NCBI GenBank assembly: GCA_024275415.1
Contig: JAJRZD010000005.1
Location: 30,001-62,000, forward strand
Direction: 5' to 3'
DNA: 32,000 nt
Origin: an archaeon
GTDB taxonomy: Archaea > Asgardarchaeota > Thorarchaeia > Thorarchaeales > Thorarchaeaceae
The stretch's first letter is position 1, and each line of letters begins with the position of its first letter. The position numbers and the translations under genes are program-made. The notes under the pieces are model-generated. The model was given only the letters and a program-made list of their open reading frames with translations, had not been told where the DNA came from and did not search any database. Of this stretch, positions 699 to 32,000 are shown one piece after another.

Positions 699-3600
699 CT
701 ACTCTGAAACATCATCTTTCTTGTCTTTCTTGAGAAGCGACTCCACCTCTGCAATGAATTCATCCTTCGGATCCACTCTCTCTTTTTGTTCGGTTTTCTT
801 CCTTTTCTTGGCAGGTTTTTTCTTTGCTGGTGCTTCGTCCGGCTCAGAGATAGTGTCTGCTTCAATCTCTTCGTCAAGAGTGGTCTCTTCTGATTCGGGG
901 ACTGTCGTAGCTAGTTCCATGTCATGAACATCGGTCAATCCCATGCCCTGTCGTTGTAATATCGTATGGATACCGATGGGTGTGATGATCCCTTTCTCAG
1001 CCATGCTCATGAAAATGTCCAGAACTTCCATTTCTGACTTGTTGAGCAGGTTGGCCACAGGAGCAAGATAGTCTTTCACCTCAAACTCGGTCTGGTCACC
1101 AAGAGAGGCTTGGACATACTTGAACACCCTCATCTCATCCTTCTCTCCCTTGACTGAAGGGTTAAGGGTGTGAGGAATCATCATTTGATAGTTCAGTACT
1201 GTGTAGAGATTTGACACGATCCATTCGGGGTTGAAACAATCGACCAGTCCAGTCCACTTGGCTAGGTCATTCTTGTACTGTGACTCGAAGAGTTCGACGA
1301 AGAACTGCAAGCGGTCTCGTACCTCCTGAGTGATGCTAGAGTCACCAATCAATATCGCAAGGCAGTTCTCTCCTACCCTACTGTTTAGAATGAGGCCCTG
1401 ATAGTTGATTTCCTCAAGAGTGCCCATCTCGCCATTCTGTTTTATCTCACCATACATACTTGTTATGGCAGAGATGAACCCACTGATGAGGTCTGCCTGT
1501 ATCCTCGACTCACCAAAGGGGTGGTAGAAAAGGCATGTCCCTCGACCTCTGTAGACTATCATAAAGTGTCGTAGTGATGCGAGGATGTTGAAGTAGTCAT
1601 ATTGTGCCTTTTTACTGGCGAACATCTTTGCGCGGGACGCCCTGCTTCGTTTGGCCAATAACACTCCTGCAATAAGTCCCCCTAGCATCAAATAGAACAG
1701 TGGGTTATAGAATAGTGATAGTATCTGTATCACCATAACGCCAACTGGGTCTGCTATCACTTCTCGTGTGAGTGTACTTGTGGACATTGGCCACAGGTCA
1801 CGCCTCCCGTGGTACTTTACTACGACGGAAACGGAGGTGGCAGTGCCTTCTTCTTCTGGGACGACATAGCTGAGTTCAGCGACCCCGTTACTGTCCGTGA
1901 CACGGCTCAACGTGACGGTCAGGTTGTGGTCGTCCTCGAAGGTGACAGTGATGACGAACTCCACGGTCTCGTCTTCTAGGGGCTGCTGGACCCCGTCGAG
2001 CAACGTCGCTCGGATGACGATGGGTGCGTCCCTGACCACGTTCCCCACATACTCTACCGACAACGTGGGTGTGCCCTTCTCGTCCACGGTCAGCACCGCA
2101 GATGCAGTCCCTTCGTCACAGCCCTCTGCCACAGCTGAGAATGCGACTACGTACACTCCTGGGGAGTTGGTGATGTGGTAGTCGAGGTAATAGGTCTCGT
2201 CACCCTCCGAATAGGACATCTGGTAGGAAACACCGTCGATCGTGACGTTGACTGTCCCCCAATAGACAGGGAGGTCTCTATCAGAGTCGGTGAAGGTCAC
2301 TACGAACGTGATGGTCTCGTTCTCGTACTCGGTGTAGGTACTCTCTGAGGTGAGGGAGGTATGCAGGGCACGTACAATGATACCTGTGTCTATGACTTGG
2401 GAAGAGTAGTTCTCCTTGGAGAGGGTGAAGGTCAACGTGTGCGTGTCCAGCGACAGCATGACCGCGCTTATCGTGAAGGTGAACCTCCCAGCCACGGGCT
2501 CGGAATACGTGAGTGCTGACCCAGACCATGAGAACGACTCCCCGCTCGGGTCTATTAGTCCGTCCGTGTGGTCGTTGACGTACTCCACAGTGATCTCGAC
2601 CGTCTGGTTGAGGTACAGCACATCCGGGATAGTGTTCTCTGTGAAGACTAACCTCGTGGGGATGGGTTCAACGGTGAGCGATACCTCGCTCTTGAAGACC
2701 ACGTACCCGTGAGTGTAAGCAGAGATGTTACCGTCCAGCGTGGTGACCCCAAGCTCAGAACCCGTGAAGTTGAGGGTGTACGTCCCGTTACCTAGATCCG
2801 TAAGGGGGTGCACAGCCGTGCTGGTGGTCAGGTTCACCTGCATCCCTGGGAGGTAGTTGGAGTCAGTGTCCTGCATGGTAAGCCTGAGCTCGACCCATCC
2901 ATCATAGTAGATGGTCTGTGTGTCGAACCCACCGATGACTGTAATGACCTGTCCAGAGGTGGGGGTCTCTATGACCTCCACGGTGACCGTGAACGTGCGG
3001 TTGATACTGCCGTACCGCCACGTCCATACCTCCATCTGGTATGTCCCCAGCCCGTCCTGCCCGTCGAAGAGGAACTGATAGACCCCTGCACCGACATGGG
3101 CAAGGACATAGTCCGTACTCATATAGGTGGCATTGACAAGGGCATCCGTGATAGGCTGTCCGAAAGAGTCTAACACTGTCACGTCCAACGTCTGCGTGTG
3201 GGTGTAGTATATCTGGGTGGTCGTCCATGATGGCGTCACAGAACCACTGTCTATGACGATATACAATGTGTCTACTTGCCTTCCGGTGTCGTACCCTGTC
3301 TTGTTAGCCATGACCGTGGCGTTCCACGTGCCCAGCCCTATCGCTGAGGCGTCAAGGGTCAGGTGCCAACGCTCGTCTGTTGCCGAGTAGGTGAAGTCGT
3401 ACACGGTCGTGGTGTTGACGTACAGCCTGACTGTTGCCCCAGGGATGGGTAAGCTGTCGAAGGTGTAGATGACAGAGATGTCCACGGTCTCGAAATAAGT
3501 CGCGTTCAGGTCTGATGGGGAGATCCAGTCCACGTAGAACGTGTTCGGTGCGATGGTGATGTTGAGACCTGAAGTGGTGTTTGTCTGTCCCACATAACCG

Positions 3601-6020
3601 AACGACCACGCACTAATAGATGCAGAGTATGTCCCGATACCAATGTCCTCCCCTGGGATAGTGATGTTCCATACCGTGCCCGTATAGGTCAGGTCGTAGG
3701 TCACACCGTCAATGGTCACGTTCACCACCGCAGAGGGCACGTCTCCCCCGCCATAGGCGTAGTCCACCTGGAGGTTCAGGGAGTCCGTGTATATTATCGT
3801 CACGTTGGATGGTGTCCATATGACAGTCAGTGGTGACGTTGGCTCCTTGTGGATGGTCAGGGCCTGTGTGTCGTCGAACCTCGGGACATGTTCGGCCCTC
3901 GATGCAGAGATGTTCAATGCGTGGGTGGCAAACCCGAGCCCGTCAGTCCCGTTGAACTGGACCCAGTAGAAGCCCGCAGGGTCGTACTGTAGTGTCCACG
4001 TGGTCGTGTAGTCAGTGACTGTGACGAGGGCGTTCTGGACGATGGTGCCGTTGGCATAGCTGTATTGCACCGTCAGGTTTGTGTTCCCGATATAGCTGAT
4101 GTTGTCAGTGTTGGACCATGCCACCACGAGGGGTAACGTGTCATAGGTCAGGGTCACGTCAATGGTGATGCTCTGGTTCTCGATAGCGGACCCGCTCCCG
4201 TTCACCCTCACTTGATAGGTTCCAGCAGAGTAGCCTGTTGTGGAGATAGTGGCTGTCCACGTGCCGTTGTTGAGGTCAGTCATCCCTGTCCATGTCCCTC
4301 CATCGAAGGAATACTGGACTATGACCCCTGCGTATGATCCGTCTATCCCCTTCGGTGTGAAGGTATCGTCAAAGTCCACCCTGACCTCGAAGGTGCTGTC
4401 AGTAAAGGCGTCTATTGTCGGGTCTGCCGGGGTCAACGTCGTGGGGTAGAAGACCACGAACTCCTTCGTCAAGTACCCAGCCTCCGTGCCGTTCGTCCAA
4501 TAGACCTCGATGCGGTAAGTCCCGTTGTTGGACGTGTCGAGGTCAATGTCCCATGTGTAGGACGTAGCACCGTTGGTGACGGACTGGTTTGCAGGGTTAT
4601 ATACCACGGATGTAGAGTCCCAGATGGTGAGGTTCGTAGTCCCAGACGTGGCATTGGTCAGCGTACCGTCTTGGATGGTGTTAGTGATGAGGAGGTTGTC
4701 AGTGATGCTCACCGTGTCCAGTGATATGATCCCTGTGACGTAGTTCGGTGCGGTGGACACCAGTGACCACGTGCCGTTGCCCATGCTCGACACCAAGACA
4801 GTGTTCCCATCAAGCAGGTATGTGGTGTGGTTGGTAGGGTCTGTCCCGTTGTATAGCCCAGATGTGGTCCAGTCGTCCTGCTTGGTGAGGTTGAGGTATC
4901 TGCTCTGGGACTGGCTTGGATATGACACAACAGTGGTCAGGTTCCACATCACGTCGCCCCCGCTCACGGGAACGTCCCACACTGACTGTGCAGGAACGTC
5001 TTTCCTGTACCACAACGTGAGGTTGTGGTATATCCCGACGGACTGGTTGGAGTCGAAGGCGATGGAGGAGATGTTGGTGGGGCTCGTCCACGAAACACTG
5101 TTCCCACTGAGAGGGGTGCCGTTCGCACGCAAAGAGACCTCAGCGGGCTGGAACACCATCGGGAGGTTCGAGGACTGGTCCCAGGGCACGTAGGTGTAGT
5201 TCAGCAAAGCCTCGTACGCTTGGTTCTGGCTCCATGCATTTAGCTCTCTCGTGTAGAACCTCGTTTGGAACGCCCCTGTGGAACTCTCGGAGTTCCAGAT
5301 TATCATCGGGAACGCTGGACCACTCTTCTGCAAGGCGTTCCCGTCGATCAGGGCATAGTAGGTGCTGTCCCCCGTGAGGTTAGCGAGGGCTGTTATCGTC
5401 GTCCATACACTGCTACCTTCGTACACTAGTGCCTGTGGGCTGGTGACGTTGGAGGAGGAGAGGGCGTAGTCAGAGCGGACGACGAAGTAGGCATCCCCAT
5501 AGAGGGACGGATTATAAGTCGGTGTGCTGTGGAAGACGGAGTAGTTCAACAGGAGCCCGTCGTGGGGCTGGGCGTAGAAGCCCTGTGCGAGCTGCGTCAC
5601 GTTGGAGAGTGTGTCTTCCCTGATGTAGAAGTTCTGGGTCTGGTCGATGCTCCCGACGACCTCCCTTTCCACGATGGCGGTGAGGTTGTCTATGGTCATG
5701 TCCGCCCTGTACAGCGTCCAGCCTGCCATGTGGAACTGGGTGAGGTCCACTGTCCCGTTGTGCTGTGCGGTGCTGGCGTAGCTGTTCGTGACGGTGAAGG
5801 TCTGCCCTGTCACTTCCCGGGAGAAGTGCTGGACAGCTGTGGATGTGTTACCTTGACCGGAGGCCGAGGAGATAGAATGCACCGAAATGGCGTCCATCTC
5901 GATCACTTCACCATTTGAATCATTGAATAACGACAGTTCTTTGGGTTTGTCTGCAAGAGGAGTGCTCAGAAGAATGAGAAGACACAGTGCTAGTACAGGC
6001 AAGATGGTTTTCTGGTTCAT
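699..6020 (-). CDS. Giant type-I membrane protein: signal peptide, N-terminal domain, about 9-10 Ig-like repeats, one TM helix, cytoplasmic longin domain, winged helix, acidic/basic tail
   Basis: The ORF track starts at 6095, but ATG at 6020 has GGAGG 10 nt upstream and begins a signal peptide (MNQKTILPVLALCLLILLSTPLA). Thr/Val/Tyr-rich ~100-aa beta repeats (e.g. TDLNNGTWTATI, TDLGNGTYTLNF) carry many NxS/T sequons. TM: LFYNPLFYLMLGGLIAGVLLA followed by KRSR. Longin motif: GTCLFYHPF...DLISGFISAITSMY. Confidence 0.9.
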   Translation of the reverse strand: MNQKTILPVLALCLLILLSTPLADKPKELSLFNDSNGEVIEMDAISVHSISSASGQGNTSTAVQHFSREVTGQTFTVTNSYASTAQHNGTVDLTQFHMAGWTLYRADMTIDNLTAIVEREVVGSIDQTQNFYIREDTLSNVTQLAQGFYAQPHDGLLLNYSVFHSTPTYNPSLYGDAYFVVRSDYALSSSNVTSPQALVYEGSSVWTTITALANLTGDSTYYALIDGNALQKSGPAFPMIIWNSESSTGAFQTRFYTRELNAWSQNQAYEALLNYTYVPWDQSSNLPMVFQPAEVSLRANGTPLSGNSVSWTSPTNISSIAFDSNQSVGIYHNLTLWYRKDVPAQSVWDVPVSGGDVMWNLTTVVSYPSQSQSRYLNLTKQDDWTTSGLYNGTDPTNHTTYLLDGNTVLVSSMGNGTWSLVSTAPNYVTGIISLDTVSITDNLLITNTIQDGTLTNATSGTTNLTIWDSTSVVYNPANQSVTNGATSYTWDIDLDTSNNGTYRIEVYWTNGTEAGYLTKEFVVFYPTTLTPADPTIDAFTDSTFEVRVDFDDTFTPKGIDGSYAGVIVQYSFDGGTWTGMTDLNNGTWTATISTTGYSAGTYQVRVNGSGSAIENQSITIDVTLTYDTLPLVVAWSNTDNISYIGNTNLTVQYSYANGTIVQNALVTVTDYTTTWTLQYDPAGFYWVQFNGTDGLGFATHALNISASRAEHVPRFDDTQALTIHKEPTSPLTVIWTPSNVTIIYTDSLNLQVDYAYGGGDVPSAVVNVTIDGVTYDLTYTGTVWNITIPGEDIGIGTYSASISAWSFGYVGQTNTTSGLNITIAPNTFYVDWISPSDLNATYFETVDISVIYTFDSLPIPGATVRLYVNTTTVYDFTYSATDERWHLTLDASAIGLGTWNATVMANKTGYDTGRQVDTLYIVIDSGSVTPSWTTTQIYYTHTQTLDVTVLDSFGQPITDALVNATYMSTDYVLAHVGAGVYQFLFDGQDGLGTYQMEVWTWRYGSINRTFTVTVEVIETPTSGQVITVIGGFDTQTIYYDGWVELRLTMQDTDSNYLPGMQVNLTTSTAVHPLTDLGNGTYTLNFTGSELGVTTLDGNISAYTHGYVVFKSEVSLTVEPIPTRLVFTENTIPDVLYLNQTVEITVEYVNDHTDGLIDPSGESFSWSGSALTYSEPVAGRFTFTISAVMLSLDTHTLTFTLSKENYSSQVIDTGIIVRALHTSLTSESTYTEYENETITFVVTFTDSDRDLPVYWGTVNVTIDGVSYQMSYSEGDETYYLDYHITNSPGVYVVAFSAVAEGCDEGTASAVLTVDEKGTPTLSVEYVGNVVRDAPIVIRATLLDGVQQPLEDETVEFVITVTFEDDHNLTVTLSRVTDSNGVAELSYVVPEEEGTATSVSVVVKYHGRRDLWPMSTSTLTREVIADPVGVMVIQILSLFYNPLFYLMLGGLIAGVLLAKRSRASRAKMFASKKAQYDYFNILASLRHFMIVYRGRGTCLFYHPFGESRIQADLISGFISAITSMYGEIKQNGEMGTLEEINYQGLILNSRVGENCLAILIGDSSITQEVRDRLQFFVELFESQYKNDLAKWTGLVDCFNPEWIVSNLYTVLNYQMMIPHTLNPSVKGEKDEMRVFKYVQASLGDQTEFEVKDYLAPVANLLNKSEMEVLDIFMSMAEKGIITPIGIHTILQRQGMGLTDVHDMELATTVPESEETTLDEEIEADTISEPDEAPAKKKPAKKRKKTEQKERVDPKDEFIAEVESLLKKDKKDDVSE

Positions 6021-6368
6021 AGGTTTGCTTCCTCCATTGTCACCTTTGTTAGTCCCCTGTATGTATCGTGATGGTTGTTCGTGTGTGAAGGGCATATACT
6101 AAATCTATCCAATGGACAAAAATCGCACATCACGATATTTCTTTTGCATTCTCTTATATCATTGTTTAGGGGGAAGGTTCTCATATGAATACCTCAAGTA
6201 GAGGGGTGCCATTGCGATGCTATAGAGCTGTGATGGCAACCGGTTTCCGTGGTTTATTACTCCAACCAGAATGGAAATTGAAGATATATACGTATCTCAA
6301 TTAGCATGCATTCGATTAATCGAGCTGTTGGGATGGACGACCATTCGGTTTTACATCTAGTTAGTGGT

Positions 6369-12269: not shown

Positions 12270-14546
12270 TTGTTCTCTTGTGGCAAATGTGGGCTCCCCC
12301 TGTTCATCCGTTCAGCATCTCTAAAAGATATGATCCTCAATCTGGATGTGCAGTGTCTGCAGGGACACAAGGGTGTACGCCGAATTGCAGAGCACCAAGT
12401 GGAGGAAGTTGCCCAAGAGATCTTTCGACGGCTCTACACTTGCATCGATTGTGGGTCTAACATGATGATGGTGGGAACTGAAACGCACAAGGGGTCGACC
12501 GAGGGGCTTTTCATCTGTCCAAACCATGGAGCGGAACGGAGAGAGTTCCCTGCACAATTCCTCGGTCATGTCACTCTTGCTGGCTCAGAGGTCAACCCTA
12601 ACACTTCCATCCGAAACTCGTTCAGATGTGATGAGTGCGGTCTAATCTATTCCATCACGGACATCCAAGAGAAAGGAGGCATTCTTGAAGCATCCGTCAA
12701 GTGCGCGAATGGACACAAGGACACGAAATACCTAGCGCCTCACATGGATGAAGGGCTATTGAAATCAATATTGCAACGCATCGCCCACTGCGACAGATGT
12801 GGACTCCCAGGACACCTTTCTGGAGTCGAAGAGCGCAAGAGAAACAGTCGGTTGCATGTGGTCTGCCCCACTCATGGTGTGACAAAGAAACAGGTTCCAA
12901 CCGAGTTCATTGGGAAGATACAGGAATCTGTTGCTGAGATACCTGAAGATGCAGTGATCAGGGCCATGCTGACCTCTTCCAAATGTGAGCGACCACTGGT
13001 GATACGCGAGATCGAGGAGGCACCAAATGGTTACAAGTTCAAGACCCTCTGTCCAGGCCATGGCAATACAGGTGATTTCGTGACACCTGTGGACTGGAGG
13101 GAACGGAATCGCAGGCTCATCACACAGTCCACATTGTCATGCAACGAGTGTGGCTTGCAGACCCAGATACTGGACGCTCGCAAGAAAAAGAAAGGGACTC
13201 AGTTCAGAGTAGTCTGTCCTACTCACGGAGTTATGTTAAGGAATGCACCACACGATGTGTACAGCATCATTGAGGAAACCTCTCATCATCTCGACAAGCT
13301 TCCGTCGCTGATACGGAGTTTGACCTGTGAGAAATGTGGCATCCCGTTGAGCCTCCGTGATGTCGAAACGAAGCGAGGGATTGTCGAATTCGACATGGAC
13401 TGTCGAAATGGGCATAAGACAAAGCGTTTTCTTGCCCCTGATATCAATCAGGCCACACTTGTCGGACTCTACAAGAATCTCTACAAATGTCCTGAATGTT
13501 ATGATCCTGTAGATCTGGTCTATACAAAACCCGAAGGACGTGAAACCCGAGTGGTGCTTCTCTGTCCTCTTCACGGGAAGCAGGTATTGGATGTCCCGGA
13601 TGATCACGCTGAAGCAATGCAGCTTGCCTATGATGAGATAAAGGCGGATCGCCTGAAGCCGCGGATAGAAGCCGTTCATGAGGAACCAGAAGCGGAGTTA
13701 GAGTCATCATCGGAATCTTTGGAGTCCTCATCCAAGGAAGTGCATATAGCACGAGGCTGTGAAGTGGTTGGTGGGAAGTTCGATTTCAAGGTGAAAGTGA
13801 CCAACACTACTGGTTTTGTTATCACGAACGTGACAGTGAGTATCGTTGCCTATCCACAGGACTGCATGGAACTGGGTGGTGAGAGTTCCAAGACAATCTC
13901 GAGGATTGAAGTAGGCGGATTTCGCAGTCCGCTTTTCACATTCTATCCCACTAAAGATTGCGTCCAGGGGAAGGTAGTTGCTACCGTTTCCTATATCGAT
14001 TTCAGAGATCAGCTTCATACGTTGCAGGTCGAACCTTATCTGATACGCTCTGTCTGTGACCTGTTGAAACCGACCAAAGCCACCTCTCAACAGTTCGACC
14101 TCATCCTTGGAAACCTGACCAAGGCTGGTGAGGAACAGATACTAGAGTGGAACCCTCGGATACTCTTCACCAAGGCCGAGAAGCTGCTTCCCGTAAAGAA
14201 TTTCCATATTATCGATACGGACGAGAAGGTTCTCTCTGGTCACTTTATTGGAACCATTCGTGGGTTCGCTGAGGGGAAATACACAGGCAAGAAGGTTGCG
14301 GTCATATTCCTCATCTCTGGCCCCGAGAACGGACGTACAGCCACAGTCAAGATGGAGGCACTGGGTGAGGACATCGCGATGCTTCCGACAACCATTGACG
14401 AACTCTCAGAAACAATTGACTCGTGGATTTGCCTGCGATGTGGAGCCCCGTTGGATCCGGAGCAGGTCGAGGATCTAGGATTGCGAAAACCAATCCGGTG
14501 CAAGTATTGTTCTCATACTCTGACTTTGGGATTATATCTCATGTGA
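12270..14546 (+). CDS. Eight tandem CxxC-x21-C-x2/3-H zinc fingers + acidic/Ser linker + coatomer/adaptin-type appendage (beta-sandwich + platform) + C-terminal C4 zinc ribbon
   Basis: TTG start with GGTGA 6 nt upstream and an in-frame stop just before it. Repeats were counted by hand. Appendage similarity is detailed in findings. The C-terminus is CLRCGAPL...IRCKYCS. Confidence 0.88.
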   Translation: MFSCGKCGLPLFIRSASLKDMILNLDVQCLQGHKGVRRIAEHQVEEVAQEIFRRLYTCIDCGSNMMMVGTETHKGSTEGLFICPNHGAERREFPAQFLGHVTLAGSEVNPNTSIRNSFRCDECGLIYSITDIQEKGGILEASVKCANGHKDTKYLAPHMDEGLLKSILQRIAHCDRCGLPGHLSGVEERKRNSRLHVVCPTHGVTKKQVPTEFIGKIQESVAEIPEDAVIRAMLTSSKCERPLVIREIEEAPNGYKFKTLCPGHGNTGDFVTPVDWRERNRRLITQSTLSCNECGLQTQILDARKKKKGTQFRVVCPTHGVMLRNAPHDVYSIIEETSHHLDKLPSLIRSLTCEKCGIPLSLRDVETKRGIVEFDMDCRNGHKTKRFLAPDINQATLVGLYKNLYKCPECYDPVDLVYTKPEGRETRVVLLCPLHGKQVLDVPDDHAEAMQLAYDEIKADRLKPRIEAVHEEPEAELESSSESLESSSKEVHIARGCEVVGGKFDFKVKVTNTTGFVITNVTVSIVAYPQDCMELGGESSKTISRIEVGGFRSPLFTFYPTKDCVQGKVVATVSYIDFRDQLHTLQVEPYLIRSVCDLLKPTKATSQQFDLILGNLTKAGEEQILEWNPRILFTKAEKLLPVKNFHIIDTDEKVLSGHFIGTIRGFAEGKYTGKKVAVIFLISGPENGRTATVKMEALGEDIAMLPTTIDELSETIDSWICLRCGAPLDPEQVEDLGLRKPIRCKYCSHTLTLGLYLM

Positions 14547-14552
14547 TTTGCA

Positions 14553-15116
14553 TTATTCCTTCCAAGTCACATTGGTTCTCTCACGAGCATGGAGATGTGT
14601 GAGCACTCTATCAATTAATCCATCAATCAGTCCTTCAATCGTAGTAGGCTTGTGCCAGAATGCAGGTGATGCAGGGAACACTGTCGCTCCTGCTGCCGTG
14701 ACGACTTCCATATTCTTGATGTGAATAAGATTCATCGGTGTTTCTCGCACAAGAAGCACCAGCGGTTTCTTTTCTTTCAGGCTACAATCAGCCGCTCTGG
14801 AAATCAGGTTGTCTGCATAGCCGTTAGCGATTCCTGCCAAGGTCTTCATCGAACATGGTGCAATGATCATCGAATCAAGATGAAAGCTACCGCTTGCAGG
14901 GCCCGCAGCCAAGTCGTCCTCGTCATATGTGACATCTACCTTCATTGCCAAGTCCTCAGATGTCATCCCTACCTCATGCTCAAGGGTCTTCTTTCCCCAT
15001 TTGCTTATGATAAGGTGAACTTCGTGGCCGAGATCCTTTAACATGTTGATGGTTCTCACACCATAGATTGCCCCGCTTGCGCCAGTGAGGCATACCAGTA
15101 TTCTCTTTGCACTCAT
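14553..15116 (-). CDS. ubiX: Flavin prenyltransferase
   Basis: TGASGAIYG, ASGSF, IAPCSMKTLAGIANG, LISRAAD..LKE, RETP, PASPAFWHKP. Confidence 0.97.
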   Translation of the reverse strand: MSAKRILVCLTGASGAIYGVRTINMLKDLGHEVHLIISKWGKKTLEHEVGMTSEDLAMKVDVTYDEDDLAAGPASGSFHLDSMIIAPCSMKTLAGIANGYADNLISRAADCSLKEKKPLVLLVRETPMNLIHIKNMEVVTAAGATVFPASPAFWHKPTTIEGLIDGLIDRVLTHLHARERTNVTWKE

Positions 15117-15185
15117 GTGATTGCACGCTCTTGTGACTCAAACGTCCTTGTTCAGAACTGTTATGTTCTTTCCGGAAGGCTCTCA

Positions 15186-17027
15186 TCATGCTAGAATGCT
15201 TAGTACAAGATATGCGATGAATGCCAATCCCCCTGCGATGATTCCTGTCCTCTTCGCAATCTTTGCAGCTTCTGCGACATCCTGTGTCAGCACATCGAAT
15301 CCTTTCTCTCCAAATGTTCTGATCCCCTTTGCTTCGCCGAATGCCAGACCGACCTCGCATTGTGTGAGGTTCTCTTCAGCTCTTGATGTCGCTTGCTTGA
15401 TTGACTCTAATATCTCATCGGGCTTGTATTGTCCCACTGGAGGGTATCCCTTGCTTGATAGGGAAATGGCATTTACGACATGCGTATCGGTAGTAGTCAC
15501 TTCAGCTGTATCGAAACCCATTGACAGAAGGGTTTCCTGAATTCTTTCCCTATATCCTGGCTCGACATTGTTTCCGTCTATGGACACTAGTGCATTCCTT
15601 ACACTGTTGACTTCTAAGATGATTACCGTTATGCCTCCAGGCCCCATCCCTTCCTTTGAGGCGATGTAATCAGGGACGATCTGATGGACTCCTATCGCCA
15701 CTTTCCCTCTCGGATTTCCGAAATTGGATGCTATCGCATCTTTGACTGCCTCGATGTAAGACTCCTCATCAGGATCGCCTGACATAAGGGATACCGCGTC
15801 GTGGTCAATGCAGTTATGTGCGTCTGACAGCGCGACATAGCGTATTCCTGGGGCACTTTCCCGAGCTGTTTCAGCTGCTGCCCTTCCTACCTCAAGCGAT
15901 ATGTCGTCGGTGAACTCTGGGGCACTTGTTGTGATTGCCAGTACATCCTCTCCTACAAAGAATGTCCATACCTTGAATTTCCCATGGTCTGACCAATGAA
16001 GCCCAGATGCTATCTCATGGACTTCAGCACTGCCAATGAGATTATCGATTTCATCGAAAACAATCCGATAGTCCTCCTTGTTCGTCAGGTTCTGGTGATG
16101 TGTGCAGCTACCATGCAGGATAAACGCCTGAACACCATATTTCGTCTTGATGTGCCGGATGATCTCTGAAGGAAGTCCGCTACTACCTATGTCCCTGAAT
16201 GGTCCAGGGTGCACATAAAGAATCACCCCAACGCTGATGAGAGTTTCACCTGACCTGAACACGATAAGTTCCATTGGCACATCTTGTACGACACTTATCT
16301 CCGTGAGTAGGGTTTCCAAGGGTTCTGGATTCTCGACAAGATAGTCATACCCGAATGCCCGTAACAATGCGGGTCCATTTATGCCCAAGTCTCGTTCAAA
16401 TGGCATGCTTACTGATTTGAATATGTGATGGACTGCAATCCCACCGATTACTATTACCACGACAAAGATGATGACCCAGTAATCAGAGAGCGTCAATATC
16501 ATCACGCCCATTGAGGAGAGTGTGCTGATTATAATGGTCCAGACTAATGCGGGCATCATCGCAGCAACAAGATTCCGCACAGGGTGATAGTCACTCAACC
16601 CAGTGACGAGGAATGCAAAGGCAAGATATCCTAGCCCCATCCCAAGAGTCCAGAATTTGACTTCAATATTGGTGGCGAGAATGAAATCAATGATGCCTCC
16701 TAATGTGCCCAAGGAATACCAGAAGATGATGCCGAACTGAACAGACCCCAATGTCCTTCTTGCATCGAGAGGAGACCCTTCTTTTCTGACCAAAGCATAG
16801 AGAATGCCTGACCCTAAGAATGTGGTCACAATCAGCACAACCACATAATAGAAGAATGTTAAGAGTGATTGGCCGGATCCATTCACGATGAATTCCAATA
16901 TTGCTAATATCGATGATGACACCAACGCCATCGCGACCATTCGAATGATGATGCCTCTATAGGTCGGCAGTTGCCAGACCTTGGAATATAGCTTGACCGT
17001 TTCTTTTACTTTGGCTTGCTCGCCCAT
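15186..17027 (-). CDS. DUF2070-family membrane protein (N-terminal TM bundle plus neutral-ceramidase-like domain)
   Basis: About 6 TM helices, then YVHPGPFRDIGSS.LP, HGSCTHHQN, DAHNC, DGNNV.PG.R and TTDTH.VN. ATG 17027 is preferred to TTG 17033. Confidence 0.85.
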   Translation of the reverse strand: MGEQAKVKETVKLYSKVWQLPTYRGIIIRMVAMALVSSSILAILEFIVNGSGQSLLTFFYYVVVLIVTTFLGSGILYALVRKEGSPLDARRTLGSVQFGIIFWYSLGTLGGIIDFILATNIEVKFWTLGMGLGYLAFAFLVTGLSDYHPVRNLVAAMMPALVWTIIISTLSSMGVMILTLSDYWVIIFVVVIVIGGIAVHHIFKSVSMPFERDLGINGPALLRAFGYDYLVENPEPLETLLTEISVVQDVPMELIVFRSGETLISVGVILYVHPGPFRDIGSSGLPSEIIRHIKTKYGVQAFILHGSCTHHQNLTNKEDYRIVFDEIDNLIGSAEVHEIASGLHWSDHGKFKVWTFFVGEDVLAITTSAPEFTDDISLEVGRAAAETARESAPGIRYVALSDAHNCIDHDAVSLMSGDPDEESYIEAVKDAIASNFGNPRGKVAIGVHQIVPDYIASKEGMGPGGITVIILEVNSVRNALVSIDGNNVEPGYRERIQETLLSMGFDTAEVTTTDTHVVNAISLSSKGYPPVGQYKPDEILESIKQATSRAEENLTQCEVGLAFGEAKGIRTFGEKGFDVLTQDVAEAAKIAKRTGIIAGGLAFIAYLVLSILA

Positions 17028-17106
17028 CGACAACCCTCTCGGATTGCCCTAGTCGGGCACCTGAATCTTATCAAACTTACCATCTGTAAGTCCCCTCACC
17101 AGAATA

Positions 17107-17137
17107 TTTATATCACATTCGATAATCGCATTCGATA
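17107..17137 (+). promoter_or_regulatory. TATA box (TTTATAT) followed by two tandem imperfect palindromes; candidate PadR operator
   Basis: TATCA-CATT-CGATA (17111-17124) and AATCG-CATT-CGATA (17124-17137). The 9-mer CATTCGATA repeats with 13-nt period and ends 23 nt before the PadR ATG. Confidence 0.55.
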
Positions 17138-17160
17138 TTAGATGTCCATGAGCTGATATA

Positions 17161-17703
17161 ATGCCCTCTGACAAAGCCCCTCACGAAGAATGTCCCGATA
17201 TGCGGATGCCTCATTCCATGCCTAGAGGGTTCCTTCGGTTGGTTCTCCTTGGACTACTAAAGGGGCGAGAGTTGTCAGGGATGGACATTATGAGAATTCT
17301 TGCAGAACGTACAGATGGTATATGGCAGCCCAGCCCGGGTTCGATCTATCCATTGCTTGCGTCCTTGGAAGATAATGGGGCGATTGAAGTGGCAAGGACA
17401 GAAGGTCGCTCAAAGATATACCGGCTGTCAAAGCAAGGTTTGGGACAACTACGTGCTGCTTTCAAGAAGAAGGGAGCTCTGAGCGAGAAGGCCAATATGG
17501 GGCCCAGGTTATGGGAGAAGCTCCTAGACCCCGTTGAAAGGGCCCGCTTCAATGTAATGGTTTTCACACACCATCTGAGCTCATTGGAAAGCATCCTTGA
17601 CCGACTTACCACTCGACAGAAGCAGAAGCTGTTGAGTCATCTGGAACAGATGTCGGATCACCTAACAACCATCATTGAACATCTTAAGAAGGAGAATCAA
17701 TAG
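17161..17703 (+). CDS. PadR-family transcriptional regulator
   Basis: LRLVLLGLLK...SGMDIM...WQPSPGSIYPLLASLE..G...KIYRLS.QG. Its stop abuts the ABC start at 17704. Confidence 0.92.
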   Translation: MPSDKAPHEECPDMRMPHSMPRGFLRLVLLGLLKGRELSGMDIMRILAERTDGIWQPSPGSIYPLLASLEDNGAIEVARTEGRSKIYRLSKQGLGQLRAAFKKKGALSEKANMGPRLWEKLLDPVERARFNVMVFTHHLSSLESILDRLTTRQKQKLLSHLEQMSDHLTTIIEHLKKENQ

Positions 17704-19560
17704 ATGACCAAAAGCACTCACCAAGAACAAGTAGTAAAATGTAGCCCCCTCCGGTACATGTTCGGAGGTCTCATTAAACATCCATTGTCAATTACCTTCG
17801 CCACGATTCTTACTGTTGTATCCACATTGTTGTTAACAATCCCGACATTGATCATTGGTTGGGCAATCGATGAGCTGAAAGATGCTGGGTTAAGCGAGCA
17901 ATTCGTCTTCTATGTCTGGACAATAATAGCTCTCGCGTTGATATACATGGCTCTCTATTTTCTGGTCGGATACGTCTGGGCCGTTGTCACTCTTCAGTGG
18001 GAGCGTGATGCCAGACAGGACTTCTTTGAGGCGTTACAGGAGTTCAGTATGTCTTTCCATGATGAGGTCGATAGCAAGCGGCTCCTTTCAGTTGCGATGC
18101 AGGATATTAACTGGGTACGCCTGTCATTGAATCCGGCACTGCGGAACATCATAGGCGCGCTCGCCTCTATCGTAATAACAATTGTATTCTTGGGCGCGAT
18201 AGACCAGTCCCCTGGACTAGTCACATTCTTTGTCATTCCTTTCTTCAACGTCAAAGTTGGCATGTTCACGGTAATCATGCTTACTGGAATACCTCTCTAT
18301 CTCTGGTTCGCGTACCGATATGCAAATGCTGTTGAACCAGTCAGACGTAAACGCTCTGAAGATATTGAAACCTTGACATCGATGTCCCAAGGTGTGTTCC
18401 GCGGGATTGAGGTAGTCCGGGCATTTGGCAAAGAGGACGAAGAGAAGCGCAAGTTCAAAGATGCCAGCAAGCAGTATGAGAGGATTGTGGCAAAGGAAGG
18501 CAAGCTAGCAGCATTCTATATTCCTGCACTCGTGTTGATTGCAATGACTACCATTGCTTTCCTGTACGGCGGATTTGCCACATGGTCTCTCCAGATCACT
18601 CAAGGCACCATGATCCAGATACTGGGGTTACTTGTAGCACTAGAGGCGATGAACTTTTTCTTACCACGAATGCTGTTGGTGCTTAGAGGTGGATTTGTGA
18701 ATGCAGCGCGTATAGTCGATATCCTTTCTTGGAAAGACCCATTGATTGAGCCCGAGCAGGAAGCAGGAAGTGTTGAATGGCTGGGTGACATAACATTCGA
18801 GAATGTGAGTTTCACCTATAACAACCCCAACGGTTCGACAGACCACTATGCGCTGAAGGAGTTGAGCATTACTATCCCTGGAGGATCCCGTGTCGCTCTG
18901 ATTGGTGGTCCCGGGGGTGGCAAATCGACCCTTCTCAAATTACTCCTAAGATTGTACGACCCCACAATGGGCACGATTCGTATTGGAGGGACAGACCTGA
19001 GGGATATAACGACAAAGACAGTTCGGGATAATGTGGGACTTGTAGAGCAGGATATCTTCCTTTTCAGGATGAGTGTCCATGATAACATTGCCTTTGGCCG
19101 TACTGATGCAACCCGTGAAGAGGTCGAAGAAGCTGCCAAGAGAGCTCAAGCACATGAGTTCATCATTGAGATGGAGGACGGCTATGACACAATCATCGGT
19201 GAACGAGGGATGACGCTGAGTGGTGGACAGCGCCAGAGACTTGCGATCGCAAGAGCGCTGGTTCAAGACCCAAAGATACTACTTCTGGACGACTCGGTGA
19301 GCGCAGTTGACGCACAGACAGAGTTTTTGATGAGAAAGGCATTGGATGAGGTGATGGTTGGAAGAACCAGCATCACCGTGACCCAGCGACTAAGGACGCT
19401 CATCGAATCTGACCTCGTGATAATACTTGACAAAGGAAGACTCATCGCTGCTGGCTGTCATGAGGACCTGTTAAGAGAATCAGACCACTATCGCAGGATC
19501 TTCGAACGCCTCCCGGGAGCGCAGGCACTTCTGGCTAGTACTTCTGGAGGTGTTCGCTAG
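17704..19560 (+). CDS. ABC exporter half-transporter (TMD+NBD), degenerate-site subunit of a heterodimer
   Basis: Walker A GGPGGGKST, signature LSGGQRQR. Walker B ILLLDDSVS has Asp for the catalytic Glu, and the switch TQR has Gln for His, as in TM287-type subunits. Confidence 0.95.
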   Translation: MTKSTHQEQVVKCSPLRYMFGGLIKHPLSITFATILTVVSTLLLTIPTLIIGWAIDELKDAGLSEQFVFYVWTIIALALIYMALYFLVGYVWAVVTLQWERDARQDFFEALQEFSMSFHDEVDSKRLLSVAMQDINWVRLSLNPALRNIIGALASIVITIVFLGAIDQSPGLVTFFVIPFFNVKVGMFTVIMLTGIPLYLWFAYRYANAVEPVRRKRSEDIETLTSMSQGVFRGIEVVRAFGKEDEEKRKFKDASKQYERIVAKEGKLAAFYIPALVLIAMTTIAFLYGGFATWSLQITQGTMIQILGLLVALEAMNFFLPRMLLVLRGGFVNAARIVDILSWKDPLIEPEQEAGSVEWLGDITFENVSFTYNNPNGSTDHYALKELSITIPGGSRVALIGGPGGGKSTLLKLLLRLYDPTMGTIRIGGTDLRDITTKTVRDNVGLVEQDIFLFRMSVHDNIAFGRTDATREEVEEAAKRAQAHEFIIEMEDGYDTIIGERGMTLSGGQRQRLAIARALVQDPKILLLDDSVSAVDAQTEFLMRKALDEVMVGRTSITVTQRLRTLIESDLVIILDKGRLIAAGCHEDLLRESDHYRRIFERLPGAQALLASTSGGVR

Positions 19561-29419: not shown

Positions 29420-29779
29420 CTAATATCCCCATTCTTGTCCTAACCGCTGGCGATACCAGCGTTGTCCCTTCTTAGTCAAAGAGTATTTGCCCATGATTTC
29501 TTGAAGAAGACCCATATTCATCATATTTTGAACCACCGTGAACAGTGATGCGTCAGAGGCGCCAGTTGATTTCTTTAGGCTCTGGAAATCCATCTTACCT
29601 TCACGCTTCAGAACCTGGGCCACATCAAATTTCCCTGTAGATCTTGTTTCTTCCCTGATGATGATATGACCGCAATTTGTGCAGATCATATCGCCTTTGT
29701 GGTCGTCACGGGCAACTTCCTTCGCTCCGCAGATTGGACAGGTTGTCTTTGAGAATCTAAGTGAACGTCGGTGTGACAT
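29420..29779 (-). CDS. TFIIB-type zinc ribbon fused to a winged-helix domain
   Basis: CPICGAKEVARDDHKGDMICTNCGHII, then VAQVLKREGKMDFQSLKKSTGASDASLFTVVQNMMNMGLL...YSLTKKG. Confidence 0.85.
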   Translation of the reverse strand: MSHRRSLRFSKTTCPICGAKEVARDDHKGDMICTNCGHIIIREETRSTGKFDVAQVLKREGKMDFQSLKKSTGASDASLFTVVQNMMNMGLLQEIMGKYSLTKKGQRWYRQRLGQEWGY

Positions 29780-29844
29780 AATTAACGACCTACTGCGAGT
29801 CGCGATTTGTCCTTGATAAAACTAACGAAGTGACGGAATGATAC

Positions 29845-30357
29845 TCAGCTGTCCGGTTCTGTTTCTGCTAGCCTCCTGAAGAAAGTTTCGTAGTCTATCT
29901 CGAACGCAACACGATTCCCGGGTCGTGCTTTTCCTCCTCTGCTGTCAAGTTCGATGTAACCCATGTCGCTCAATTCTCTGAGGTCTGTGAGGACACTCCT
30001 TCTGGCTTTTCTCCTGAACTGCCGGATACGGTCGATGCTCACCCAATCGCCTTCTTGGTATGCAAGTGTGATAACGACAAGCAATGTTGCTGCCAACCTG
30101 TCTGGCAACGGTGAGTCTTTCAAGATGAGATCACTGCTTGTGTCAGTGTCCAAGTAAAACACATGGCTTACCGGATTGTGCCGGATCACGAGTCCTACAG
30201 GAGCGATTCTGCGATGCAGCTCTGACAACCTCTGAAAGAGGACATGCCTGCCTGCATCTTCTGGTAACCCTAACGCATCAAGCATATCATCTACTCCAGC
30301 ACCTATCGGATTGCCGGTTCGTGTAAGCAACCTCATGAGGACAGAATACTCGTTCAT
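29845..30357 (-). CDS. KITE-family tandem winged-helix protein (ScpB/Nse1/Nse3-like)
   Basis: Two wHTH units: LSELHRRIAPVGLVI...FYL and LAATLLVVITLAY...LRELSDMGYIE...GNRVAFEI. It lies directly after the kleisin. ATG 30357; GTG 30360 is an alternative start. Confidence 0.75.
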   Translation of the reverse strand: MNEYSVLMRLLTRTGNPIGAGVDDMLDALGLPEDAGRHVLFQRLSELHRRIAPVGLVIRHNPVSHVFYLDTDTSSDLILKDSPLPDRLAATLLVVITLAYQEGDWVSIDRIRQFRRKARRSVLTDLRELSDMGYIELDSRGGKARPGNRVAFEIDYETFFRRLAETEPDS

Positions 30358-30375
30358 CACGTATCTCTCTCTTCT

Positions 30376-31017
30376 TTATCTGCGCAGTATCTCATTCTCA
30401 TCCCTAAAGTATTCCACATCACCTCTGGAGATGAGCACTACGATGTATAGGAAGTGTCTGAGGAAAAGGTCGAAATCCTTTGCGTCTATAATGTCAGCAA
30501 TCGGTATACGTTTCTTTCTTGGGATTTTCTTCAGGTAGCGCCGCAGGTCTTCAAGGAACACAGAGTCCTCTGAAACGAACTTGAAGTCATCAGGAAGTCC
30601 GCTCAACTCTGGTATCTTTTCTTCCGTGGCCACCCTTGAGAGTGCATCTAAATGCTGCATCACTCGACTGAGTGACTCTGTAAGTGAGCTGTGACTCAGA
30701 CGGGTCATCTTCAGAGGTTGCTTGTATGCTATCAACTTGCTGACCTGACGAGGTTTGAGTTCCTTCAACCGGCTCACGTAAATCTCTGGTGCTGATAGGA
30801 TCCTTGCCAATTCCTGCACGCGGCTAATTTTAACACCGAGAAGGTCGTTCAGCATCTCGTCAATATCGAGTTTCGGTTTGACATCAGCAGCCAACGCTCG
30901 TAGGTCATGATATGCCTCTGAGAGTCCGATGTCAAGAGGATCCATCTCTCCCTTTTCAACTGCACGAACGACCTTTTGTATCTTTGAGAGGAGTTCTTTG
31001 GAACCTGCCATCATCAT
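30376..31017 (-). CDS. scpA: Kleisin (ScpA/Nse4-like)
   Basis: N-terminal GEMDPLDIGL motif (ScpA DPWDI-like) and C-terminal winged helix FLRHFLYIVVLISRGDVEY. It starts 5 nt after the SMC stop. Confidence 0.8.
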   Translation of the reverse strand: MMMAGSKELLSKIQKVVRAVEKGEMDPLDIGLSEAYHDLRALAADVKPKLDIDEMLNDLLGVKISRVQELARILSAPEIYVSRLKELKPRQVSKLIAYKQPLKMTRLSHSSLTESLSRVMQHLDALSRVATEEKIPELSGLPDDFKFVSEDSVFLEDLRRYLKKIPRKKRIPIADIIDAKDFDLFLRHFLYIVVLISRGDVEYFRDENEILRR

Positions 31018-31022
31018 ACCTT

Positions 31023-32000
31023 CTATTGTCCTTCAAACACAGGGCTCTCGACCACCACTGACGGTTCTGTTCCGCCAGGTGATACCACACCCAACCGCTT
31101 GTCAGCATGTCTGAGCAGATGCGTACTTTTCGCTGGAGTAAATAGGATGAACTGGCTCCGTCGAGACGCATCATGAAGTAAGCGGCTCACCATCTCTGTA
31201 TTCGTAGCGTCCAAGAATGTATCAATCTCGTCCATTGCATATACCGGCGCGGGATTGAATCTCTGTAGCGCCAAGATGAGCCCGATGGCGATGAGTGAGC
31301 GTTCGCCACCAGAGCCAGAGCTGAGATTCCTGAACTCTTCCCCTCTTATCTTAGTCTTGAAGTCAACTCCATAGTCTTTGCTGGCCATATCTAATTGAAA
31401 CTTCACCTTGCCTGAGAACTTGACCGAACTCAGGATTCTGTTTTCCTCCTCCTCTACCTTGAGCAGCACCTCATTCATACCGTTACGGTACTGTATTTTT
31501 ATTTCTTTGACAGTCGTTTCTGCTTATTTCAGCTCCTGCCTGATATCTTCGAGTTTTTCATCAAGCTCTGAGAGCCGGTCGCGGAGTTGGCTTTCAGTAT
31601 GAGCAATAGTTTCAGTGACATCCCTGTATTCGTCCAATTGGTGTCGTACTCGTAGCAGCTCTTCTCTGACGACTTCTATAGGTCTTACCCTCTTTGGTCG
31701 CTTGGTCTTCTTCAGCTGCTCCTCGATTACTGCCTTCTGGTGAACGAACGCATCGTGCTGCCGTTTTGCCTGCACCACTTGGATCCTGCTGTTCTTGACC
31801 TGAAGATTAAGTTCTAGCAGACGACCACTAAGTTCTCGTATCATCTCACGGATATCAGCTTGCTGTCCTACAAGTTCAGTATATTTGCTGTTGGTTTTTT
31901 CAAGTCCTTCTTTCAAGGTTTCTAACGTTTCTACGATTGTCGTGCCTTCAGTCCTCACAGAGGATATCTCTTCCCGAAGGTCTGTGACTCTTTCTGAAAG
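31023..32000 (-). CDS. smc: SMC-family ATPase, C-terminal part (coiled coil + head), running off the right edge and interrupted by one in-frame TAA at 31524-31526
   Basis: Track ORFs 31524-31958 and 31023-31478 share a frame, joined by *AETTVKEIKIQYRNG. The frame stays open to nt 32000. Head motifs: SGGERSL, ALQRFNPAPVYAMDEIDTFLD, QFILFTPAK. Confidence 0.92.

Follow-up and report, generated by a model that had tools for sequence, protein, structure and literature searches.

An SMC gene followed by genes for a kleisin, a KITE protein and a small zinc-ribbon protein lies at the end of a 32,000-nt stretch of thorarchaeal DNA (hereafter, the window) and raises the question of whether these genes encode an archaeal relative of the eukaryotic Smc5/6 complex, and whether the fourth gene belongs to it. 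The host is a Thorarchaeota MAG (Asgard) with a genome of 3.5 Mb, and positions 29420-32000 of the window comprise four co-oriented genes on the minus strand, namely the C-terminal part of the SMC gene, the kleisin, the KITE and a Zn-ribbon/winged helix-turn-helix (wHTH) gene. All open reading frames of this layout were found where the original prediction had placed them, with gaps of 5, 15 and 65 nt, and the motifs SSGSGGERS, QFILFTPAK, GYIE and GNRVAFEI were all read in the translations. With conserved homologs numbering from dozens to hundreds per gene, and with the order recurring in other genomes, the pattern is not due to chance. A search for a separate canonical smc-scpA-scpB set, proposed as a check, identified a Pfam-recognizable one elsewhere in the genome (contig C120, positions 13073-17833), and the set in the window is therefore a second SMC system. 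In a search of the whole genome, the kleisin and KITE profiles match the window copy only.

Of the 1123-codon SMC gene, the window covers no more than approximately the final 320 codons, while the remainder lies past the end of its contig (C45) on another contig (C71, positions 1-2418). The two parts overlap by 106 aa with one mismatch, and C71 supplies the N-terminal 806 aa, which match SMC_N, AAA_23 and SMC_hinge (5e-11) in Pfam. Within the window, an open frame joined to the C71 part by this overlap encodes the coiled-coil arm returning to the head (31527..32000, minus strand), and the C-terminal head lobe (31023..31523, minus strand; Pfam SMC_N, 1.1e-19) carries the signature SGSGGERS, the Walker B/D-loop VYAMDEIDT and the H-loop region QFILFTPAK. 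The protein thereby exhibits the Walker A, Q-loop, signature and Walker B motifs, the long coiled coil and the hinge of an SMC protein, and its motifs are invariant in 17 thorarchaeal orthologs. Between arm and lobe, an in-frame TAA is found at codon 957 of 1123 (31524..31526, minus strand; read as QELK-stop-AETTV). At this position, the 18 orthologous SMC rows, all of them uninterrupted, have E (15/18), A (2/18) or D (1/18). This codon, the continuation of the gene on C71 and an AAA+ gene preceding it had been missed in the original prediction.

The SMC of the second set is clearly non-canonical. A “TP” at the H-switch is a signature of Smc5 and Smc6, whereas canonical prokaryotic Smc has QFIxIT-H/L; a 35-aa H-loop peptide gave no useful match in the PDB. 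The scores of the N-terminal part are about level across families (Smc2 48, Rad50 46, Smc6 45, Smc5 39.5 and P. furiosus Smc 37.5 bits). Its canonical paralog, in contrast, reaches 224 bits to P. furiosus Smc and shows no Smc5/6 among its top 60 matches. The C-terminal lobe matches the NCBIfam model SMC_prok_A at 9.5e-26, far under the cut-off, and is closest to canonical Smc (69 bits vs. 41 for Smc5 and 31 for Smc6), which counts against an SMC5/6 reading. An Atlas feature search with an intact SMC ortholog returned archaeal SMC clusters and some eukaryotic Smc6-like or Rad50-like clusters, which serve as leads only. SMC5/6-related SMC-kleisin-kite operons in TACK and Asgard archaea are an already published kind, as the second archaeal SMC set was assigned to the SMC5/6-related lineage and two independent phylogenies group it with Smc5/6, Nse4 and Nse1/3 (Yoshinaga and Inagaki, 2021; van Hooff et al., 2025). 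One Thorarchaeaceae genome is listed with SMC5/6-related SMCs and two kites, one ScpB-like and the other Nse1/3-related (Yoshinaga and Inagaki, 2021; van Hooff, Raas, Tromer and Eme, bioRxiv 2024/2025). The SMC5/6 affinity of the locus thus rests on published trees and elimination. Of the proposal that it is an archaeal Smc5/6 relative, the existence of an SMC-kleisin-KITE set apart from the canonical one stands and the literature places such second sets in that lineage, but the C-terminal lobe favors canonical Smc.

The putative kleisin gene (213 aa; 30376..31017, minus strand) is located between the SMC and KITE genes, 5 nt after the SMC stop codon, and both this position and the size are conserved across loci. 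No Pfam family was matched by the protein, and its profile yielded no significant match in the PDB. Its C-terminal FLYvviLisrG aligns to the C-terminal winged helix of P. furiosus ScpA (4i99_C), albeit weakly (E 0.78), and an HMM built from thorarchaeal kleisins finds the same-position gene in Loki-type genomes. The identification as a kleisin rests on position, size and the one weak C-terminal match. The published work on these operons reported no Nse4-related kleisin in the representative of Thorarchaeota (Yoshinaga and Inagaki, 2021; van Hooff et al., 2025); in contrast to that result, a putative kleisin is present in this thorarchaeal locus, though a very divergent one.

The third gene (29845..30360, minus strand; 170-171 aa) starts either 15 nt after the kleisin at a GTG or 18 nt after it at the ATG at 30357, the latter being the start used by orthologs. 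Judging from an AF2 model (pLDDT 76) and Foldseek, which point to two tandem winged-helix domains, its product is a KITE protein. Six PDB matches, all to KITE proteins, were obtained at E <= 1e-3, the best being MAGE-A3 (4.6e-5), then ScpB (from 3e-4; four chains in all) and JetB (4.8e-4); Nse3, MAGE-A4, MukE and Nse1 come next at E 1e-3 to 5e-3. The KITE of the window has no Pfam match. Among its relatives, ScpB is the only Pfam KITE family matched (10/48 members, best 1.5e-6, a weak score), and neither Nse1 nor MAGE is found among the 25 most-matched Pfam families. A VIA-align and Atlas structure search with the model mainly yielded winged-helix proteins of a generic kind and drew no line between ScpB and Nse1/3. 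The suggestion that this KITE is closer to Nse1/MAGE than to ScpB finds no clear support: MAGE-A3 ranks at the top, but ScpB and JetB are near behind and the Pfam matches of the relatives are to ScpB. The family is small, with 56 clusters at 50% identity.

Synteny was analyzed in 20 Thorarchaeales loci, which represent 16 genera of the family to which the window belongs together with its sister family. The genes are contiguous in 14/20 loci, while four loci carry an insertion of 1.8-10.8 kb between kleisin and KITE, one has an inversion and one is missing the KITE. The KITE and Zn-ribbon genes are adjacent in 19/20, and this adjacency persists where insertions or the inversion part the KITE from SMC and kleisin. 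The synteny of the fourth gene, which had been named as a check, is hence observed with respect to the KITE. The four-gene operon as a unit does not hold: in all six loci investigated from Asgard archaea outside the Thorarchaeales, the order is AAA-like gene, SMC, kleisin and KITE without a Zn-ribbon gene, which makes these four the Asgard-wide unit, whereas the Zn-ribbon gene is confined to Thorarchaeales and has its own promoter.

The AAA+ gene of this unit (356 aa) is located on C71, 4 nt upstream of the SMC gene, and an AAA-like gene precedes SMC in all Asgard loci whose upstream sequence is long enough. Its AAA fold is recognized (PF00004, 2.7e-12; NVL/VAT/Cdc48, 1e-15). The Walker A position reads G-P-P-G-T-D-F instead of an intact GxxGxGK[TS], the acidic pair of Walker B is not conserved in 15 thorarchaeal orthologs, and one homolog from outside this group retains GTGKT. 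By its sequence, the gene is a degenerate AAA+ derivative that is presumably mostly ATPase-dead. A profile of its C-terminal domain yielded no significant match in the PDB, and a GGCGCGRAA box upstream of the gene shows no enrichment in the genome.

The fourth gene (119 aa; 29420..29779, minus strand) follows the KITE gene after a 65-nt gap. Its product begins with a TFB/TFIIB-type C4 ribbon (C14, C17, C33 and C36, spaced C-x2-C-x15-C-x2-C) that matches PF08271 (1.3e-7; 31.5 bits, cut-off 29) and, on residues 10-42, the TFB model NF001658 (1.9e-5). The ribbon is followed by a winged helix (about residues 47-101) and a C-terminal helix with the invariant tail WYRQRLGQEWGY. In Foldseek searches with the AF2 model (pLDDT 79), the wHTH part matches MarR/PadR-type proteins, AspA and Sso10a with a TM of about 0.5 and an rmsd of 1.3-2.5 Å over approximately 72 residues, all at E > 1e-3, and by sequence it falls into no assigned family. 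The 89 homologs share 62-86% identity and are nearly all labeled Thorarchaeota. Across 400 Asgard genomes, full-length matches are confined to the window's order, and the matches of the gene's profile outside it are only the ribbons of TFB genes of 310-350 aa. A search for fused forms revealed no fusion to a KITE; a single 319-aa protein from a 2.9-kb contig, in which an unrelated GC-rich N-terminus precedes the ribbon-wHTH sequence, has no KITE part and was rejected as a probable chimera. The predicted complex of KITE and Zn-ribbon protein scores 0.29 against a mark of 0.32, which is evidence neither way.

A promoter element, TTCGTTAGTTTTATCA, composed of a BRE-like box and a TATA box, the latter at 29814-29821, lies at 29814..29829 (minus strand) and ends 34 nt short of the fourth gene's ATG. 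In 18/19 of the other loci listed, TTCGYTAGTTTTATC(A) or a variant with one to two base changes is found 30-38 nt before the start, the sister-family locus L042 being the one without it, and the spacer outside the element is not conserved. The exact element occurs as a single copy in the 3.5-Mb genome, and its box TTCGYTAGTTTTATCA is unlike those preceding the AAA-SMC genes. This conservation indicates that the Zn-ribbon gene is transcribed from a promoter of its own.

We consider it reasonably probable that the end of the window contains the distal genes of the second, non-condensin SMC-kleisin-KITE complex of this thorarchaeote, i.e., an operon of the SMC5/6-related type with an AAA+/SMC/kleisin/KITE core and an added Thorarchaeales ribbon gene that works with the KITE, and that the TAA is an artifact. 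The TAA at 31524-31526, which occurs where relatives have a sense codon and formally breaks the SMC reading frame in the assembly, might instead indicate that the system is dead in this genome, with the SMC cut before its signature, Walker B and H-loop and the operon decaying. This is very unlikely, as the 166 codons after the TAA and the three genes that follow are undamaged and strongly conserved, in-frame TAA codons also occur in the canonical smc (C120:15176-15178) and the essential rpoB (C117:12139-12141) of this MAG, and the SMC gene crosses a contig break with strain variation; together, these observations suggest noise in the assembly or consensus. A genome-wide excess of in-frame TAA codons was also looked for with a crude codon score, which did not discriminate. 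Given the TAA in rpoB in particular, the codon in the SMC frame is probably a consensus or assembly error or a minor allele and not the death of the gene. The cluster might also be simply a fast-evolving paralog of condensin-type Smc-ScpAB, without any special tie to eukaryotic Smc5/6. We judge this unlikely, since the two published phylogenies place the second archaeal set with the Smc5/6 components, the N-terminal lobe ranks Smc6 and Smc5 level with other SMCs while the canonical paralog lists neither, and the best Foldseek match of the KITE is a MAGE domain.

For the added gene of this SMC5/6-related operon, the main alternative is a stand-alone transcription factor, possibly docking on RNA polymerase in the manner of TFB3, whose adjacency to the KITE reflects neighborhood or regulation of the locus and not a role as SMC subunit or targeting factor. 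The conserved BRE/TATA element, unique in the genome and unlike the boxes upstream of the AAA-SMC genes, fits an independent regulator equally well, the ribbon and wHTH match the TFIIB/TFB family and MarR/PadR regulators, respectively, and the operon is kept without the ribbon gene in other Asgard lineages. However, the adjacency to the KITE outlasts insertions and an inversion across 16 genera and the sister family, the ribbon protein, with a mean column identity of 75%, is better conserved than the KITE (65%) and the kleisin (45%), and the promoter motif recurs at no other gene, which leaves no regulon visible. We thus view a stand-alone factor as a serious but somewhat unlikely option. The combination of an SMC-like ATPase, a kleisin, a KITE and one further gene had also suggested an analogy to Wadjet/MksBEFG with the extra gene as effector, and PADLOC indeed gives generic ABC-head matches, including a weak one to JetC. 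A defense system of this kind is nevertheless extremely improbable: PADLOC returns no match, Jet or Mks included, for any of the kleisin, KITE and fourth genes, and the fourth gene encodes a 119-aa ribbon-wHTH protein that lacks any Toprim or nuclease domain. In addition, the SMC contains a true hinge, and the locus, which lies on the chromosome in nearly all members of the family and keeps its synteny there, is unlike a mobile defense island.

The reading as an SMC5/6-related operon with added genes can be compared with several known systems. Like the operons described by Yoshinaga and Inagaki and by van Hooff et al., the locus is a second set beside a canonical one in an Asgard host, with one SMC and one kite in the order SMC-kleisin-kite. 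Those operons comprise three genes, whereas the Asgard loci analyzed here add a preceding AAA+ gene and those of Thorarchaeales also a Zn-ribbon/wHTH gene after the kite. With eukaryotic Smc5/6, it shares the combination of SMC, kleisin and KITE, a KITE model whose best PDB match is the MAGE homology domain, and an SMC N-terminal lobe that matches Smc6 and Smc5 as well as other SMCs. The eukaryotic complex contains Smc5-Smc6 and Nse1-Nse3 heterodimers, but here each operon has one SMC gene, for which a homodimer is expected, and one KITE gene, whose 170-aa product lacks a RING or zinc-finger extension. The locus has neither an Nse2-like SUMO ligase nor an Nse5/6-like solenoid, and its extras are the AAA+ relic and the ribbon/wHTH protein. 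Smc-ScpAB is likewise built of three parts encoded in the same order, and weak sequence links connect the kleisin C-terminus to ScpA and the KITE relatives to ScpB; the kleisin and KITE of the window, however, have no Pfam match and the SMC is far under the NCBIfam SMC cut-offs. The C4 ribbon of the fourth protein resembles those of TFB/TFIIB and of truncated TFB paralogs, which exist, for example, as TFB3 in Sulfolobales. Unlike TFB/TFIIB, the protein lacks the B-reader, the linker and the cyclin folds, and residues 47-117 form a PadR/MarR-like winged helix and a helix instead. The winged helix followed by a C-terminal helix is shared with PadR-like and AspA-type binders (pNOB8 AspA, Sso10a), from which the protein differs by its extra N-terminal ribbon.

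By analogy with Smc-ScpAB and Smc5/6, the SMC would homodimerize at the hinge, the kleisin would use its C-terminal winged helix to bridge one head's neck and the other head's cap, and a KITE dimer would sit on the central part of the kleisin. DNA entrapment or loop extrusion would be driven by the heads as they bind and hydrolyze ATP. Thorarchaeales appear to have gained a fifth gene directly after the KITE, whose product joins a TFB-type ribbon to a PadR/MarR-like winged helix and ends in a helix with a probable role in dimerization. We read the ribbon protein as a putative dimeric DNA-binding factor associated with the KITE module that targets or regulates the complex and does not act as an enzymatic effector. 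Less probably, it could form a second, asymmetric winged-helix subunit that parallels in function the zinc-binding Nse1 next to Nse3, or a tether docking the complex on RNA polymerase via its TFB-type ribbon, while the AAA-like pseudo-ATPase could be a loader or regulator with a role comparable to that of Nse5/6.

Two features of the locus look new, namely the Zn-ribbon/wHTH gene that is constantly found beside the KITE in Thorarchaeales and the degenerate AAA+ gene before SMC across Asgard archaea. It is tempting to propose, though we hold this to be rather unlikely, that three-gene descriptions overlook dedicated additional subunits of the Asgard SMC5/6-like complex: an Asgard-wide, AAA+-derived pseudo-ATPase with a conserved C-terminal domain and a Zn-ribbon/wHTH protein that pairs with the KITE in Thorarchaeales. 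If the extra genes are mere neighbors, the locus is an ordinary example of the published operon type. No known organisms are more closely related to eukaryotes than Asgard archaea, whose second SMC complex has been proposed as the ancestor of Smc5/6. Should the accessory proteins prove to be conserved parts of it, the subunit set for reconstituting the pre-eukaryotic complex would change, and the AAA+ relic and the ribbon/wHTH protein would be candidates for the loading and targeting of this complex before Nse2 and Nse5/6.

Four same-direction ORFs on the minus strand occupy positions 29420-32000, separated by gaps of 5, about 15 and 65 nt, and all motifs quoted in the original prediction were found in them. 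In a Pfam search, the SMC head fragment (SMC_N, 1.1e-19) and the fourth ORF (29420-29779; PF08271, TFIIB-type zinc ribbon, 1.3e-7) were recognized, while the second and third ORFs, assigned to the kleisin and the KITE, gave no family match. Only the last third of the SMC gene lies in the window. It covers positions 30001-62000 of contig C45, which ends 294 nt further on, and contig C71 of the same genome starts within the same gene: the two share about 315 nt (window position 32000 to the end of C45; C71:1-315), or 106 aa with one mismatch (K/E), which indicates that the assembly broke on strain variation within the SMC gene. Past this overlap, C71 supplies 806 codons for the N-terminal head, the coiled coil and the hinge (PF06470, 5e-11). 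The joined gene comprises 1123 codons, in agreement with the 1122-1145 residues of intact orthologues, and contains all ATPase motifs. Elsewhere in the window, an ORF of 1798 aa (699-6095, minus strand) has no Pfam match and lies in a stretch richer in G+C (0.56 vs about 0.48 in the rest of the window).

The SMC frame is interrupted by a TAA codon at 31524-31526; neither this nor the truncation of the gene by the window edge is mentioned in the original prediction. All 18 orthologous rows of the alignment carry a sense residue at this site (E in 15, A in two, D in one); a single, unconserved GAA-to-TAA change therefore explains the stop. In this metagenome-assembled genome (127 contigs, 92.9% complete, 4.5% contamination), several long genes each contain one in-frame TAA, including the canonical smc (C120:15176-15178), a PAS sensor gene (C119:57484-57486) and rpoB, where it replaces the conserved Ser of the GRT-S-PPRFLEE motif (C117:12139-12141). 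A crude test revealed no clear genome-wide excess restricted to TAA, and these codons are most simply explained as consensus errors or minor alleles. Since the essential rpoB bears the same defect, the SMC gene, which also spans the contig break with its strain variation, is probably not dead.

As the original prediction had asked, a separate smc-scpA-scpB set was looked for, and a Pfam-recognizable one is present on contig C120. Searches of the genome with profiles of the window-type kleisin and KITE, at a cut-off as loose as E <= 1, recovered no copy other than the window's; the genome thus encodes exactly two SMC-kleisin-KITE sets, of which the window's is the non-canonical one. The SMC is clearly non-canonical. 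Its signature motif, its Walker B motif and the QFIxFTPAKS stretch show no variation in 17 Thorarchaeal orthologues, and the canonical paralogue reads QFIVVSLR at the latter position. The TP dipeptide is a putative signature of Smc5/6. Against PDB sequences, the N-terminal part obtains similar scores with Smc2 (48 bits), Rad50 (46), Smc6 (45), Smc5 (39.5) and P. furiosus Smc (37.5), and the C-terminal lobe matches canonical Smc best (69 bits; Smc5 41, Smc6 31). The canonical paralogue yields 224 bits with P. furiosus Smc and 120-193 with Smc1-4, and Smc5/6 are absent from its top 60 matches. The kleisin is highly divergent (mean column identity 45%), and its sole outside link is a C-terminal FLYvviLisrG motif resembling the winged helix of P. 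furiosus ScpA (E 0.78).

The third gene encodes a true KITE, consisting of two winged helices (AF2 model, pLDDT 76) and belonging to a family of only 56 clusters in an exhaustive profile search. Its closer proximity to Nse1/MAGE than to ScpB, as originally proposed, gained no independent support: the best Foldseek matches are all KITEs (MAGE-A3 4.6e-5, ScpB 3e-4, JetB 4.8e-4, Nse3 1.1e-3, followed by MukE), and the Pfam link is to ScpB, with weak matches in 10 of 48 family members (best 1.5e-6), Nse1 and MAGE being absent from the 25 Pfam families most often matched. The operon type itself is already known. Archaeal SMC5/6-related SMCs coexisting with canonical ones were defined by Yoshinaga and Inagaki, and complete SMC5/6-related SMC-kleisin-kite operons were described in TACK and Asgard archaea by van Hooff et al., who reported for one Thorarchaeaceae genome SMC5/6-related SMCs, one kite that is ScpB-like and another that is Nse1/3-related, with no Nse4-related kleisin detected. 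As Thorarchaeal genomes contain only two KITE types, the window KITE would correspond, by elimination, to their Nse1/3-related one.

Comparison of 20 loci, which cover 16 genera in the family of the window together with its sister family, revealed a usual layout, in which a divergent MoxR-like AAA_5 gene is followed by co-oriented genes for an AAA protein (340-370 aa), SMC, kleisin, KITE and the zinc-ribbon protein. The arrangement is contiguous in 14 loci; in four, unrelated genes lie between kleisin and KITE, in one the KITE/zinc-ribbon pair is inverted, and in one, from a genome that is 88% complete and has part of its sequence masked, the KITE is missing. The fourth gene, whose synteny had been put up for testing, thus adjoins the KITE in 19 of 20 loci. 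The kleisin-KITE junction is an exact, recurrent insertion point (L023 in genome G328, L024 in genome G327, L035 and L036), receiving 1.8 to 10.8 kb that encode an MFS transporter, an FAD oxidoreductase, a beta-lactamase fold and other unrelated proteins; such inserts occur in two genomes that belong to the same genus as the window. In a search of 400 Asgard genomes, the fourth gene was matched over its full length only within the window's order; elsewhere the matches were limited to the ribbons of TFB genes of 310-350 aa. Nearly all homologues of the KITE and of the fourth gene bear the label Candidatus Thorarchaeota, and a few are labelled Hod-, Loki- or Promethearchaeota. In six non-Thorarchaeal Asgard loci, including three in closed Loki-type genomes, Thorarchaeal HMMs detect the order AAA-like, SMC, kleisin, KITE, and none has a zinc-ribbon gene after the KITE.

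The AAA-like gene (L016, the locus part on C71, 2423-3493, minus strand) lies directly upstream of SMC, outside the window, and homologues occupy this position in all 17 Thorarchaeal loci reaching far enough and in all six non-Thorarchaeal ones. Its product has a classical-clade AAA+ fold (PF00004, 2.7e-12; NVL/VAT/Cdc48 D2 down to 1e-15). Other residues stand in for the lysine and threonine of Walker A in Thorarchaeal orthologues (GPPGTDF), which have not retained the acidic pair of Walker B either; one non-Thorarchaeal homologue keeps GTGKT. Conservation is highest in a C-terminal domain of roughly 90 aa that is common to all Asgard homologues and has no PDB or Pfam match. Between this gene and the divergent gene for a MoxR-like AAA_5 ATPase of 571 aa (L016:3646-5361, plus strand; identity 65-74% in the 16 loci of the same family that cover it, 49% in the sister-family locus L042), many Thorarchaeal loci share conserved boxes (L016:3494-3645), GGCGCGRAA and, about 17 nt further, CCGAAGAnGTAATAT. 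GGCGCGRAA resembles an E2F-type site and is not enriched in the genome.

A different box precedes the fourth gene. The spacer of 52-91 nt is unconserved except for TTCGYTAGTTTTATCA, situated 30-38 nt upstream of the start, unique in the genome and present, exactly or with one or two base changes, in 18 of the 19 other loci listed, L042 being the one without it. We read TTCGYTAGTTTTATCA as a BRE/TATA promoter, which would give the fourth gene its own transcription start. The product (AF2 model, pLDDT 79) comprises a C4 ribbon (C14, C17, C33, C36), a winged helix (about residues 47-101) and a C-terminal helix that closes with an invariant tail, WYRQRLGQEWGY. Its winged helix resembles MarR/PadR regulators, AspA, a plasmid centromere-binding protein, and Sso10a (TM about 0.5, E-values from 4e-3), and shows a weak alignment to the KITE's second winged helix (79% in hhalign). 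No fusion of the two genes was found in a search for fused forms.

A Wadjet-type reading, with the fourth gene as effector, is ruled out, PADLOC returning nothing for kleisin, KITE or fourth gene. The core would work like other SMC-kleisin-KITE rings, and the fourth protein would most likely bind DNA in dimeric form, by way of its winged helix and C-terminal helix, and use the ribbon for a protein contact. Its linkage to the KITE gene survives rearrangements that separate the KITE from SMC and kleisin, which argues that the protein works with the KITE module. Its putative promoter and restricted distribution would also suit an independent regulator. Neither the KITE-linked ribbon/wHTH gene of Thorarchaeales nor the Asgard-wide AAA+ relic was found described in the searchable literature, and the system would become more interesting should either protein turn out to be a subunit of the SMC complex.
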